Below are positions 30,280-36,246 of a DNA stretch of 64,000 bases, piece after piece. The stretch comes from Candidatus Omnitrophota bacterium (GTDB lineage Bacteria > Omnitrophota > Gorgyraeia > 2-01-FULL-45-10). A program made the position numbers and the translations under genes. Each line of letters begins with the position of its first letter. The first letter of the stretch is position 1. The stretch is from positions 128,372 through 192,371 of the forward strand of contig JBAZKH010000002.1 of the NCBI GenBank assembly GCA_041650935.1, given 5' to 3'. Below the pieces are notes generated by a model that was not told the origin of the DNA, ran no database searches, and saw only the letters and a program-made list of their open reading frames with translations.

Positions 30280-30323
30280 TAACGGTTGCAAACCAATTAT
30301 CTTTTGGTATAATAGATTTACAT

Positions 30324-30717
30324 TGCGGGGTGGAGCAGTCTGGTAGCTCGTTGGGCTCAAGTATGGATACAAAGCTCAAAGCTGATATTGCAGAGTCTGC
30401 CGTTGTAATAGCGCTTCTTATAAAAGCGGCAGCGCAATATACAAAGAGCGTTGGGATTTGTTGTCCGCCAGGGGCTGTCTAACTGGAAACGGTTAGATGA
30501 AAACCTGTCAAATTCGGTGAAGCCTGGAATGGTAATACCGAGCCAAACCTATCGGGATATAGATAGGAAGGTGTAGAGACTAGACGGCAGGCATCCTAAA
30601 GAAACGCGGGATGAAGGTATAGTCCAGACTACGAACTTCGAAATTTCGAAGGCGGCGAAAGCCGTAGTAGCAAGCATAACCCAAAGGTCGTCCGTTCGAA
30701 TCGGACCCCCGCTACCA
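30324..30717 (+). tRNA. initiator tRNA-fMet (CAU) interrupted in the anticodon loop by a group I intron
   Basis: The exons reconstitute a near-E. coli tRNA-fMet with three G-C pairs in the anticodon stem and an unpaired 1:72. The tRNA has its own promoter, ttgcaa-16-tataat, at 30286-30313. Confidence 0.7.
30358..30674 (+). ncRNA. group I self-splicing intron (~317 nt) within tRNA-fMet
   Basis: It has R-like (agactagacgg) and S-like (aaggtatagtcc) core elements. The 5' exon ends in U (30357) and the intron ends in G (30674). The exact junction is approximate. Confidence 0.6.
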
Positions 30718-30721
30718 AATT

Positions 30722-30765
30722 AAAAACCCTCTATAGTAAACCTGTAGAGGGTTTTTAATTTTTCG
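30722..30765 (+). terminator. rho-independent terminator after tRNA-fMet
   Basis: The sequence aaaaccctctatag-taaacc-tgtagagggttttt forms the hairpin and is followed by a T-run. Confidence 0.6.
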
Positions 30766-30800
30766 TATCCTTTTAAAAAGGCATTGCTTCGGCGGATCTG

Positions 30801-31988
30801 CTACTGTTTATTTATGTGGACGACTTTCGCCGGAGGGAAACCGTTGAAGTAGGTCGAAGAAGCTATCGAATAAGCCCCGATATTCTCCGCGTATACCAGA
30901 TCGCCTATTTCGAGATCCGGAAGCTCCTCCGCGACGGAAATAGTATCGAACGCGTCACAGGTGGGTCCGAAAACCGCGCATACCTTTAGGTCACCGTCCT
31001 TAAACGCCTTCAATGGATATGTACAGTGGTCGAATACTATCCCTGAGAATGTGTGGTATACGCCGTCGTCAAGGTAATAGCAGGTCTTGCCGTCGCGGAC
31101 GGCTTTTCCGATAACCTTTGTTACAAGCGTGGCGGCATTGGCGACCATGAACCGCCCGGGTTCTGCGAGGATCTCTATATCTTTCGGGAAGAGCCTGTTG
31201 AATTCCACGTTAAGTTTTCTCGCGAGCGTCTTGAAGCTCTTCACTTTATTGTTATATTTTACCGGGAATCCGCCGCCTATATCGAGTATCTTTATCTTGT
31301 GCCCGCGCGATTCCGCCTCTTTCATGATGGAAGCGGAAAGCTGTAGAGCCTGCATATAATTCTCAAAATTATTGCACTGGCTGCCGACATGGAAACTTAT
31401 ACCTTCGACGACCAGGCCAACCTTAAACGCCTCGATTATCAGATCGACCGCCTCGCCCGGGTGGGCGCCGAACTTCGACGAGAGCTCGACCATCGATCCG
31501 GTGTTAGGCACCCTGATCCGAAGCACGAGTCCCGCATGAGGGGCGTGGAGCTTTATCTTCTTCAATTCGTCGATATTGTCGTAAGTGACGAGCGGCTTAT
31601 ACTGGTCAAGCTCGTGCAGGGTCTCTATCTGCTTTATCGTATTGGCGTAAATGATCTTGTCCCATATGAAGTCCTGCCGTTCTTCGGGCGGCAGGTTCTT
31701 TATGTTTTCGTATACGATCATAAACTCCGGCATGGAAGCGACGTCGAAACTCGCGCCTACCTTATACAGGGTCCGCACTATTTCGGGATTGGAATTCGAC
31801 TTGACCGCAAAATATGCCTGGACGCGCGGCAGGGCCTCTTTGAATTCTTTGTAATTTTGGCGTATCCTTTCATGGTCCAATACAAAGACCGGCGTGCCGT
31901 TTTTTCCGGCTATCTTCTTCAGGTTATCGAGCATCCGTGCCTCTGCCAACTCCGACTTTTTCTCCGCGCTGTTCAACAATGTCTTCAT
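30801..31988 (-). CDS. PLP-dependent ornithine/lysine decarboxylase (eukaryote-type, alanine-racemase fold)
   Basis: It has the PLP-Lys region YFAVKSN, a Gly-rich loop DIGGGFP, and the GPTCD signature. Confidence 0.75.
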   Translation of the reverse strand: MKTLLNSAEKKSELAEARMLDNLKKIAGKNGTPVFVLDHERIRQNYKEFKEALPRVQAYFAVKSNSNPEIVRTLYKVGASFDVASMPEFMIVYENIKNLPPEERQDFIWDKIIYANTIKQIETLHELDQYKPLVTYDNIDELKKIKLHAPHAGLVLRIRVPNTGSMVELSSKFGAHPGEAVDLIIEAFKVGLVVEGISFHVGSQCNNFENYMQALQLSASIMKEAESRGHKIKILDIGGGFPVKYNNKVKSFKTLARKLNVEFNRLFPKDIEILAEPGRFMVANAATLVTKVIGKAVRDGKTCYYLDDGVYHTFSGIVFDHCTYPLKAFKDGDLKVCAVFGPTCDAFDTISVAEELPDLEIGDLVYAENIGAYSIASSTYFNGFPPAKVVHINKQ

Positions 31989-32014
31989 CTTGCTCCTCTT
32001 CTGCTTCGCAGGGC

Positions 32015-33466
32015 CTAGTCCCTGAACAGGAAATTTTTAAAACACCAGATATTCTTTTCGTCCAGGACAGAGTTAGGGTTTTCCTTGAAGAATACCTGGT
32101 AATTTTTGGACGGCGTCCAATCGGAAGCCCGCGACACTAATTTCCCGAGATACGGTTTGGCGATACCCAGAATATAATCGTGAGGCAGGTCGTCCGGCAC
32201 GCAGACGCCTTTGTGCGGGTTCTCTATCATCCACATAATGGCGGAGACGATGCCTATGGCAACCTGCATCGTCGTCGCATTCTGGTGAGGGACAAGCCTT
32301 CTGGATTCCTCGATACTCAATATACTGCCCGTCCACCATGAATTATATTTGTGCCCCATTATGAGCGCGCCCAGGATATCGTTGCCCGACGTAATCTCGT
32401 CGGACATTATCCGCAAGTTTGGCTGGAGATCGTAACTGCGCGCGCGCAGTTCATAGAGCGAAGAGATCGTCTCGTGGCACGGCATATAGGCGTAATATAC
32501 GGTGGGCCTGTATATGGGCTTGCCGCTCTTCCATACGGTAAGTTTTTCGGAGATCGAGAACGATTCGCCGTGCCTTATCACCATGCCGATAATTTCATAA
32601 TCCGGGACCCACGAACGGACCCATGTATTCATCCCCATCTGCGACAAAAATATCTGGTTCCCGGGACCGTAAGTCGCGACGTTTGCGAAAGGAGGGAGTA
32701 TCCTCTCGTGCGTGCCCCATCCCATCTCCGCCGGAGAGATGCCCTCTTCTCTCAAACCTTCGATCGACCACGTCCCGACGAATTCATCCACCTCTTTCGG
32801 GCGGTTGGTAATTTGCGTATCGCGCTCGGAACAGTGTATGGTCTTAACGCCGAGCTTCATCGCGAGATGGGCGAAATCTCTCTCGCGCATAAAGTTCTCG
32901 ACTTCCCTGGCATCCTTCTTTGCCACGGACTTGTCCCGTACGAATTTTGCGGCGATATCCTCCAGCCCTTTCTTGGTGAAATGCGAAATGAGGCCCGGGT
33001 TGGCGCCATGATCCACGATCGCGGTCGTAGCGGAATTTTCCCAGCCGCTGGTAGCCTGTCTTAACTCCATGTGCCGGTAATAGAGGGATTTTTCAAGAGG
33101 CGATTTACTGTGAATATTGGCGTACGGATCCCATTCCTCGACGGAAGTATTTACATATAATACGTGGTTCTCATGGCACCATGTCAGGATGTCTATACAC
33201 GATATGTTCCAGGCCAGGTCTATGATCATTCCGCCGGAAGAGACGTATTTGCCGAGCACACGCGCCAGGTTTGTCGGAGTAATCTTCTCCTGGTAATATT
33301 TGACGCCTTTCCGCGTCCACTCGCGCAGCTCTTTGCGCTTATCGGCGAAGTCTATTACCGTGACGTTTTTATGCGGGATCTTGATATGTTTGAAAAGTAC
33401 CGGAAGGGCACATTTGCATACGGAGCCGTAACCTATTACAAGAATTTTGTTTTTAAATTCCATCAT
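32015..33466 (-). CDS. homospermidine synthase-like (saccharopine-dehydrogenase/CANSDH superfamily)
   Basis: It is 483 aa, the N-terminal NAD-binding IGYGSVCKCALPVLFKHI...VTVIDF resembles bacterial HSS, and it is co-oriented with the decarboxylase. Confidence 0.6.
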   Translation of the reverse strand: MMEFKNKILVIGYGSVCKCALPVLFKHIKIPHKNVTVIDFADKRKELREWTRKGVKYYQEKITPTNLARVLGKYVSSGGMIIDLAWNISCIDILTWCHENHVLYVNTSVEEWDPYANIHSKSPLEKSLYYRHMELRQATSGWENSATTAIVDHGANPGLISHFTKKGLEDIAAKFVRDKSVAKKDAREVENFMRERDFAHLAMKLGVKTIHCSERDTQITNRPKEVDEFVGTWSIEGLREEGISPAEMGWGTHERILPPFANVATYGPGNQIFLSQMGMNTWVRSWVPDYEIIGMVIRHGESFSISEKLTVWKSGKPIYRPTVYYAYMPCHETISSLYELRARSYDLQPNLRIMSDEITSGNDILGALIMGHKYNSWWTGSILSIEESRRLVPHQNATTMQVAIGIVSAIMWMIENPHKGVCVPDDLPHDYILGIAKPYLGKLVSRASDWTPSKNYQVFFKENPNSVLDEKNIWCFKNFLFRD

Positions 33467-35996: not shown

Positions 35997-36074
35997 CTTA
36001 TTAAGAGAAAAGAAATGTGAATATCCGAAAAGGTGCAGAGTAATCTAACTCTGCATCAAGTACCGGATGAAGTT

Positions 36075-36180
36075 CCGGTACTTGGCAAACCAACGGAAAC
36101 GTTGGGACGCAAAGCCATAGGGTCTAAGTCCGCCGAAAAACGGCGAGATAAGACAGCCTGGCGCACCGATAACGCGGAAT
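36075..36180 (+). ncRNA. c-di-GMP-I (GEMM) riboswitch aptamer
   Basis: GGCAAACC, a GAAA-capped P1 and GGGACGCAAAGCC are present, followed by GGGTCTAAG...GACAGCCTGG, matching the GEMM-I consensus. Confidence 0.65.
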
Positions 36181-36204
36181 AGATTATTTGAGTGCGCGCG
36201 GCAT

Positions 36205-36246
36205 AGACAGCCTGGCTACCGAAGATGGTAGTCGGGCTATTTTTTT
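36205..36246 (+). terminator. putative expression-platform terminator of the riboswitch
   Basis: A hairpin agcctggctacc-gaag-atggtagtcgggct is followed by atttttttgg. It re-uses the gacagcctgg segment of the aptamer. Confidence 0.45.

Follow-up and report, generated by a model that had tools for sequence, protein, structure and literature searches.

In a 64-kilobase (kb) stretch of the Candidatus Omnitrophota bacterium assembly GCA_041650935.1 (contig JBAZKH010000002.1; the whole stretch of 64,000 nucleotides (nt) that was analyzed is called the window below), an Omnitrophota-type gene for the initiator transfer RNA (tRNA), tRNA-fMet, is very probably interrupted, between tRNA positions 33 and 34, by an IC3-type group I intron of 317 nt, which carries in its P1 loop the relic of a homing endonuclease gene of the I-Ssp6803I type. 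The central claim of a first-pass annotation made from the letters of the sequence, that a tRNA-fMet gene is split here in the anticodon loop by a group I intron, was supported by a covariance-model match, a family alignment and covariation. The analysis establishes the features of the sequence, the place of the intron in its family, the covariation, the synteny and the relic of the endonuclease gene, whereas splicing itself and the use of this gene as the working initiator tRNA gene are inferred.

The joined exons form an initiator tRNA

Joining the segments 30324-30357 and 30675-30717, as the first-pass annotation had proposed, yielded a 77-nt sequence that ARAGORN, run on the joined exons, folded into a cloverleaf and identified as tRNA-Met(cat), and 68 of the 77 positions (88%) were identical to those of E. 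coli tRNA-fMet. The CAU anticodon, the three G-C pairs of the anticodon stem and the unpaired 1:72 position that had been read from the letters were all found on this molecule: the ARAGORN drawing and the sequence place three consecutive G:C pairs, G29-31:C39-41, in the anticodon stem, and the drawing sets U1 opposite U72, leaving no Watson-Crick 1:72 pair. A further initiator mark, A11:U24, was read from the sequence, and the CCA end is encoded in the gene. The 5′ exon recurs in more than 100 homologous loci (designated by L numbers below), and the 3′ exon is identical in L115 and L120. Together, these marks support the assignment to a bacterial initiator tRNA-fMet, for which they predict a role in initiation and formylation. 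No second initiator tRNA was found in the window, and the locus is presumably the working initiator tRNA gene of the cell. The region had also been weighed as a transfer-messenger RNA (tmRNA) in the first-pass annotation; ARAGORN found none, and no Rfam tmRNA match appeared even at E ≤ 1.

The default ARAGORN run left the gene unreported, and the intron mode (-i) miscalled it as tRNA-Leu(CAA) with the 317-nt intron forced to position 37/38, a miscall that is possible because a CA dinucleotide stands at both junctions and lets the boundary slide on paper. Taken at its word, this exact output would describe a tRNA-Leu(CAA) gene whose 317-nt intron sits at the canonical 37/38 site and is spliced by proteins, as in the archaeal and eukaryotic type, and is not of group I. 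That boundary, however, gives an A before the intron and a U at its end, contrary to the group I rule, and 33/34 is the only boundary at which a U precedes the intron and a G ends it. The exons, moreover, are 88% identical to tRNA-fMet and show its marks (the mismatch at 1:72, A11:U24 and the three G:C pairs), both the covariance model and covariation identify the insert as a group I ribozyme, and the same boundary correction for such miscalls is described in a recent survey (PMC13011429). A tRNA-Leu(CAA) gene is thus next to impossible, and an initiator tRNA gene split at 33/34 remains the preferred reading.

A separate observation concerns Nitrospirales loci (L008, L013, L024, L029, L068, L072, L100 and others), whose initiator tRNAs carry U1 and A72 (TGCGGGG...CCCCGCAACCA); these bases would make a Watson-Crick 1:72 pair, which is unusual for a bacterial initiator.

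The insert has an IC3-type group I core

The Rfam model of group I introns, RF00028 (Intron_gpI), matched window positions 30456-30650 over model positions 1-253 with 60.2 bits (gathering score 50) and with E = 8.9e-13 in a search of the whole window, which answers the check that the first-pass annotation had proposed. As that annotation also stated, the insert follows a U (U33, 30357) and ends in a G (G30674), and its R-like (agactagacgg) and S-like (aaggtatagtcc) elements turned out to be the two P7 strands with J8/7, whose columns are invariant in 113 homologues. These homologues came from one pattern scan of a one-genome-per-species collection, in which AGTCC was followed after 35-65 nt by GCATAACCCNNAGGTCG, and which returned at least 120 loci. 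Uninterrupted genes have a T before CAT, and therefore the scan pattern cannot match intron-less genes. The core alignment, A1, comprised 113 distinct ribozyme cores; L040 and L105 were left out, since the anchor motif failed in them, and the 5′ exon was not found in five loci, owing to contig ends or a divergent D arm. One scan match, L011 (a Clostridia metagenome-assembled genome (MAG), positions 852-1198), was rejected as a false positive, being an intact, uninterrupted tRNA-fMet gene with a duplicated 3′ fragment, CATAACCCGAAGGTCG, 330 nt farther on. Direct repeats of this kind are what elements leave behind when they integrate into tRNA genes.

An IC3-type structure was read off the window sequence, comprising P2, P3, P4, P5, P6, P6a, P7, P8, P9, P9a and P9b with a P3/P7 pseudoknot (Table 1), and all 58 of its 58 core pairs are standard. 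Across the 113-core alignment, 95.7% of the cells were paired, versus 34-45% when the 3′ partners were slid by 1-3 columns, and in 44 of the 58 pairs both partners have changed; no observed measure was attained in any of 500 shuffles. P7 was 100% paired, with five pairs invariant and one covarying (UA:83, AU:15 including the window, GC:13, CG:2), a near-invariance that is expected because P7 is the guanosine-binding helix. Its guanosine-binding G-C pair is G30578-C30624, and G30576, the bulged A30577, G30578-C30624 and the terminal G30674 all stand in invariant columns. Every invariant column of the family is present in the window copy. Four of its positions deviate from the 85% consensus: two form a compensatory U-A for a G-C pair in P4 and the third is a J8/7 base, all three being common to the clade of the window, and the fourth, A30547, is taken up below. 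These results support the insert as a group I intron whose IC3-type core is intact, and by this structure it probably still self-splices.

Table 1. Features of the split tRNA-fMet locus in window coordinates, with loci elsewhere that carry a free-standing endonuclease gene. Pairing and covariation values refer to the 113-core alignment.
Feature	Position	Strand	Description
Sigma-70-type promoter	30286..30313	+	-35 TTGCAA (30286-30291), 16-nt spacer with TG extension, -10 TATAAT (30308-30313)
tRNA-fMet 5′ exon	30324..30357	+	34 nt; tRNA positions 1-33, from the acceptor 5′ strand through the D arm and the 5′ strand of the anticodon stem to C32 and U33
P1 5′ strand	30354..30358	+	Exon G30, G31, C32, U33 and intron C1; 5′ splice site after U33 (30357)
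Group I intron, IC3-type	30358..30674	+	317 nt, between tRNA positions 33 and 34; terminal guanosine G30674
N-terminal endonuclease relic	30363..30419	+	ATG and 18 codons, MDTKLKADIAESAVVIALL
Middle piece and C-terminal relic	30416..30471	+	SAIYKERWDLLSARG...; reading frame differs from that of the N-terminal relic; extra base at 30467
Internal guide sequence GGGCU (P1 3′ strand)	30472..30476	+	Directly 5′ of the GAAA-capped P2
P2 hairpin	30477..30498	+	9 base pairs (bp), GAAA tetraloop; 96% paired, 9/9 pairs change on both sides
P3	30504-30509/30586-30591	+	99.9% paired, 5/6 pairs covary; encloses P4, P5, P6, P6a and the P7 5′ strand
P4	30514-30519/30536-30541	+	P4/P5 99.6% paired
P5	30522-30524/30531-30533	+	P4/P5 99.6% paired
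P6	30542-30543/30571-30572	+	Inside P3
P6a	30548-30553/30562-30567	+	6/6 pairs covary
P7 5′ strand	30576-30582	+	Bulged A30577
P8 hairpin	30592-30597/30608-30613	+	6/6 pairs covary
J8/7 and P7 3′ strand	within 30592..30625	+	P7 3′ strand 30620-30625; P7 pseudoknots with P3
P9	30629-30632/30667-30670	+	Three-way junction (30629..30670); 97.6% paired, 3/4 pairs covary
P9a	30636-30641/30646-30651	+	82% paired, 6/6 pairs covary
P9b	30653-30656/30661-30664	+	GAAA tetraloop; 99.3% paired, 4/4 pairs covary
tRNA-fMet 3′ exon	30675..30717	+	43 nt; anticodon CAU to encoded CCA
Bidirectional intrinsic terminator	30717..30761	.	A-run, 20-bp stem, U-run; free energy -25.3 kcal/mol, z = -9.1
Loci with a free-standing endonuclease gene	L120, L089:5131-5961, L063, L081, L020, L085, L079, L027, L082, L112, L077		

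P1 and the internal guide sequence

In P1, GGCUC at the 5′ splice site pairs with the guide sequence GGGCU, and U33 thereby lies opposite G30473 in a U-G wobble. The GGGC of the guide is invariant in the 113 homologues, and in the minimal homologues L065, L120 and L094 the two strands can be seen directly as GGGCT/ca...GGGCT (in L065, GGGCT/caattGGGCT; the slash marks the splice site). The minimum free energy (MFE) fold of 30350-30500 consisted of P1, one long irregular P1-loop hairpin and P2, with a free energy of -51.6 kcal/mol and z = -3.4. P10 in the window is of 1 bp (C34 with G30472, an alternative pairing), within a family range of 1-5 bp in which 3 bp is most frequent. Another candidate guide, UUGGG at 30451-30455, which could pair with CU/CAA, was ruled out by the three minimal introns and the MFE fold; these bases are the Trp-Asp codons of the endonuclease relic.

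An endonuclease relic in the P1 loop

The lengths of the homologous introns among the at least 120 loci fell into two classes, of 201-406 nt at about 80 loci and of 624-695 nt at 32 loci, and all of the long introns contain in the P1 loop an open reading frame (ORF) of about 147-150 amino acids (aa), its start lying a few bases inside the intron. The ORF of L115 matched PDB entry 2OST at E = 1.2e-47 over residues 2-146 and the Pfam family PDDEXK_5 (PF11645) with 146.7 bits against a cut-off of 26.1. I-Ssp6803I is a PD-(D/E)XK homing endonuclease from the 655-nt intron of the Synechocystis PCC 6803 tRNA-fMet gene (PMC1995217; PMC3384342), and by these matches the intron ORF of the relatives is assigned to the I-Ssp6803I family. 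The nearest relatives of the window, L115 (625 nt) and L084 (647 nt), are of the long ORF-bearing type, and intact ORFs of 141-147 aa were found in 7 of 7 complete subclade members from metagenomes (628-654 nt).

The P1 loop of the window intron, in turn, is 113 nt long and holds pieces of such a gene. The intron start, caagtATGGATACAAAGCTCAAAGCTGATATTGCAGAG, reads MDTKLKADIAE, which is the N-terminus of the ORF in the relatives, and the N-terminal relic is identical at 48 of 57 positions to L084 and at 56 of 62 to L129, in both cases to the start of an intact ORF. At the other end, window positions 30432-30466 are identical at 29 of 35 positions to L084 nt 381-415 (SAIYKERWDLLS...). A tblastn search with the L115 protein recovered the N-terminal relic at E = 7e-5 (residues 1-30) and the C-terminal relic over residues 123-139, and an intact protein searched against the whole window hit these two end pieces and nothing else. 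Between them, a middle piece is identical at 13 of 16 positions to L084 intron nt 323-338 (the YKSG codons), a 16-nt match too short for certainty. Positions 30359-30415 align with L084 intron nt 1-57, and the alignment then has gaps of 265 nt (after nt 57) and 42 nt (after the middle piece), so that about 307 nt are missing in total. The alignable endonuclease residues are about 1-19, about 107-110 and 125-141, in two reading frames; an intact PD-(D/E)XK ORF of about 150 aa was not found in the window intron, in which the longest ORF from the old ATG has 39 codons. By this sequence comparison, the P1 loop is identified as a pseudogene relic of an I-Ssp6803I-type gene and the intron as a deletion derivative of an endonuclease-bearing one. 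The first-pass annotation had held the intron too short for a homing endonuclease; no intact ORF is present, as it implied, but the intron is not simply ORF-less, since both ends of the endonuclease gene, about 19 codons at the start and about 17-20 at the end, lie in its P1 loop.

The missing bases might also be a product of assembly, with a true intron of about 630 nt and a full endonuclease gene collapsed by the assembler, for all other complete subclade members found have an intact ORF, and the left deletion junction falls between two similar short sequences of L084, TTAAAAAGAGG and TATAAAAGCGG. Such a collapse is very unlikely, given that no long repeat is present to cause it, that the remaining pieces have diverged (the extra base at 30467, the reshaped hairpin) as expected of an old deletion, and that ORF-less versions of the same intron occur in L120 and L094. 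We therefore keep to a genuine deletion derivative.

Elsewhere in the family, a 499-nt intron in a Chloroflexia MAG (L108:5536-5779 and upstream) lies between the two length classes and has short broken ORFs only, and is possibly another partly deleted endonuclease gene. The 275-291-nt introns of Nitrospirales have P1 loops of about 60-100 nt, which might hold endonuclease relics as well.

States of the locus in relatives

The endonuclease gene is intact inside the intron in L084, L115 and L121-L129, and no ORF lies inside the intron in L120 and L094. In L120, a full-length I-Ssp6803I-type gene is found free-standing downstream of the tRNA (L120:2867-3870, minus strand); it comes after the tRNA terminator, is accompanied by a ribosome-binding site (AGGAGG) and by a site that resembles a promoter (TTGACT...TATAAAT), and its 3′ end still reads GGGCTGTTTAA, like the guide sequence and P2 5′ strand of the intron. 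At least 11 loci with a short ORF-less tRNA-fMet intron have a full-length I-Ssp6803I-type gene about 70-270 nt downstream in the same orientation (Table 1). Partnerships between free-standing endonucleases and ORF-less introns are known in phages, and the arrangement at these loci recalls them.

Goddard and Burt are said to have described, in 1999, a cycle of gain, decay and loss of homing endonucleases, and the endonuclease relic fits such a cycle. As in that cycle, related genomes show at one orthologous locus an intact gene, a gutted gene (the window) and none (L120 and L094). Unlike the full cycle, the series covers intron-bearing alleles only, because the search pattern required an intron, and unlike plain loss, the L120 gene sits free-standing downstream.

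Possible use of the surviving gene ends as a P1 arm

In the intact relatives, the first ~50 intron nt pair with the ~60 nt before the guide, with a mean duplex energy of -30.5 versus -21.6 kcal/mol for shuffled partners. The helix of the subclade of the window is built from the start-codon region and the DLLS codons, the first codons, AUGGAYACAAAG, pairing with the last codons, UUUGUUGUCC, and this pairing of the start with the end of the ORF is the base of the long P1-loop hairpin in the MFE fold of the window. The last endonuclease codons overlap the guide sequence and the P2 5′ strand, and the stop codons of the ORFs in intact relatives lie inside the P2 helix. These results are consistent with the ORF termini having been kept as a P1 extension; the minimal introns do without it. 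We tentatively propose, while leaning toward doubt, that the surviving gene ends may be a working part of the ribozyme, an exapted P1 arm, such that the gene would decay only from the inside and, with L120 added, a three-state series would result.

Promoter, terminator and gene neighbourhood

The first-pass annotation gave the tRNA its own promoter and terminator, and both were borne out. The tRNA begins 11 nt past the -10 hexamer of a promoter-like site with 10 of 12 hexamer matches, which is not significant alone, as shuffles give one such site by chance; in 10 relatives whose spacers and flanks differ, however, TTGCAA and TATAAT (or TACAAT/TATAGT) stand equally far upstream of the orthologous tRNA (the comparison included L084, L115, L120, L121, L122 and L125-L128). 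The 20-bp terminator hairpin is placed for both convergent transcripts, the convergent decarboxylase gene ending at 30801; a simple terminator scan did not pick it up. Weak Rfam matches at about 30671-30800 (His leader, PyrR, microRNAs) were far below their gathering scores and were dismissed as due to this hairpin.

The gene order around the tRNA is thioredoxin, purN, enolase, ftsB-like, tRNA and then, convergently, an Orn/DAP-type (ornithine/diaminopimelate) decarboxylase gene and a saccharopine-dehydrogenase-like gene. L084 and L120, which carry the label Candidatus Omnitrophota, share the order purN-enolase-ftsB-tRNA-decarboxylase-saccharopine dehydrogenase, L115 matches the window for the two downstream genes, and the enolase and decarboxylase proteins are 84-86% identical to those of the syntenic relatives; no record with the exact enolase sequence was found. 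By this shared synteny an Omnitrophota bacterium is the most likely source, and the intron sits at an orthologous locus.

Several points weigh against a split gene that is functional and of Omnitrophota type. P1 is beyond the reach of covariation because the exon is invariant, and G30 and G31 serve both P1 and the anticodon stem, which makes the exact extent of P1 during splicing uncertain. The 1-bp P10, and A163 without its usual partner beside P9, could each lower the efficiency of 3′ splice-site choice, and A30547 stands where G is 97% conserved. The Omnitrophota assignment by synteny depends on MAG labels, and that of the close relative L115 is Planctomycetia; the inspection for other initiator tRNA genes covers 64 kb of the genome. 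Along these lines, the locus might be a dead copy that splices poorly or not at all in a cell that uses an intron-less initiator tRNA gene outside the window, the locus and its endonuclease gene decaying together, as the clearly decayed endonuclease gene, the minimal P10 and the changed purine could suggest. Yet both exons are intact, with the 3′ exon shared unchanged with L115 and L120, every core pair and invariant position is kept, the promoter and terminator are conserved, and every close relative has the same intron at the orthologous locus; furthermore, an intron-containing and an intron-less tRNA gene of one anticodon rarely share a genome, according to the survey (PMC13011429). A dead copy is thus improbable, and a split gene in working order remains the favored explanation.

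Two further observations concern the neighbourhood. The decarboxylase and saccharopine-dehydrogenase-like pair (window 30801-33466, minus strand) adjoins the tRNA also in L084, L115 and L120, and its composition suggests a polyamine pathway of the carboxynorspermidine or homospermidine type. A candidate cyclic di-GMP-I riboswitch aptamer, one hairpin of which contains an insertion of 66 nt, lies at window 36074-36223 on the plus strand (RF01051; 63.2 bits, gathering score 35).

Distribution and comparison with known introns

Nearly all of the at least 120 scan loci are tRNA-fMet genes split at 33/34, and by their record titles they bear about 19 phylum-level labels: Nitrospirota, Bacteroidota, Rhodothermales, Chloroflexota, Omnitrophota, Acidobacteriota, Cyanobacteriota, Melainabacteria, Planctomycetota, Methylomirabilota, Desulfobacterota, Elusimicrobiota, Patescibacteria, Chlamydiae, Armatimonadota, Eremiobacterota, Bdellovibrionota, Auribacterota and Pseudomonadota.

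The intron of Synechocystis sp. PCC 6803 was described from 1994 to 2001, and Bonocora and Shub reportedly presented it in 2001 as a tRNA-fMet group I intron encoding I-Ssp6803I. Like that intron (U10482; PDB 2OST), the window intron interrupts tRNA-fMet, and by the published assignment for tRNA-fMet introns it does so at the same site (33/34), and the long members of the window family (624-695 nt) are in the size range of the Synechocystis pair of 655 nt and 150 aa. Unlike it, the window intron lacks about 307 nt of the endonuclease gene, so that no enzyme is possible, and its host is not a cyanobacterium. The ribozyme cores were compared through other cyanobacterial members of the family (e.g., L017 Trichodesmium and L043 Aphanothece in A1). 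The window intron shares with the Synechocystis intron its host gene and insertion site, its ribozyme class and the family of its endonuclease.

The IC3 introns of Azoarcus tRNA-Ile and Anabaena tRNA-Leu are the classical self-splicing bacterial tRNA introns. By the general architecture of these introns and the shared Rfam model, the window intron resembles them in its short anticodon-loop P1, its GAAA-capped P2 and P9 hairpins, its P3/P7 pseudoknot and the conserved GUAGAGACUAGACGG / AAGGUAUAGUCC core; it differs in the tRNA and insertion site (36/37 in Azoarcus tRNA-Ile and 34/35 in Anabaena tRNA-Leu) and from both in its endonuclease relic, neither being known to have an endonuclease gene or relic.

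The first-pass annotation called such genes known mainly from cyanobacteria, and this one phylogenetically interesting for that reason. This view is out of date, given the labels above and a survey from 2026, which covered 4,934 complete genomes, names tRNA-fMet 33/34 as a commonly found intron site and has in its Table S5 fMet 33/34 IC3 introns from Bacteroidota, Desulfobacterota and Nitrospirota as well as one of 252 nt from Omnitrophota (GCF_004102945.1) (PMC13011429). One member of A1, L068, corresponds in intron length (283 nt) and opening sequence to a Nitrospirota entry classed IC3 in that table. The Omnitrophota intron of the survey occupies the same gene and site and is placed by that paper in the same IC3 class, but it is 252 nt long, its P1 loop is minimal and its anticodon stem divergent (CAAGGCT...AACCTTG); the window intron falls into another subclade, in which all members but this one carry the endonuclease gene. 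The parts of the survey consulted contain no description of endonuclease relics.

Discussion

The sequence would be expressed and processed as follows. Transcription from its own sigma-70-type promoter would give a precursor some 400 nt long, running to the intrinsic terminator, and the intron would fold as a P1-P9 ribozyme in which exon G30-U33 and intron C1 pair with GGGCU (30472-30476), the wobble of U33 opposite G marking the 5′ splice site. A free guanosine held at the P7 G-C pair would attack after U33; the terminal G30674 would next occupy the P7 site, and the 3′-OH of U33 would attack after G30674. Exon joining would restore the anticodon loop CUCAUAA, and RNase P would trim the short 5′ leader, the CCA being already encoded. 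The endonuclease would formerly have cut tRNA-fMet genes without an intron and so given the intron mobility, until an internal loss of about 307 nt and a frameshift left first and last codons that may pair as a P1 extension.

For annotation, the locus is a pitfall: default tRNA finders miss the gene and the intron mode says tRNA-Leu(CAA), so that the genome would seem to be without an initiator tRNA. The finding adds one lineage to an already broad distribution and leaves the knowledge of group I introns and initiator tRNAs unchanged. What it offers is a snapshot of a homing-endonuclease gene in mid-decay within a ribozyme that is otherwise intact, and at this chromosomal locus relatives have counterparts that are intact or ORF-less. 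If the P1-arm reading and the arrangement in L120 hold true, the orthologous Omnitrophota locus would show, in a natural series of three states, how endonuclease genes come into group I introns of bacterial chromosomes, leave them and cooperate with them.

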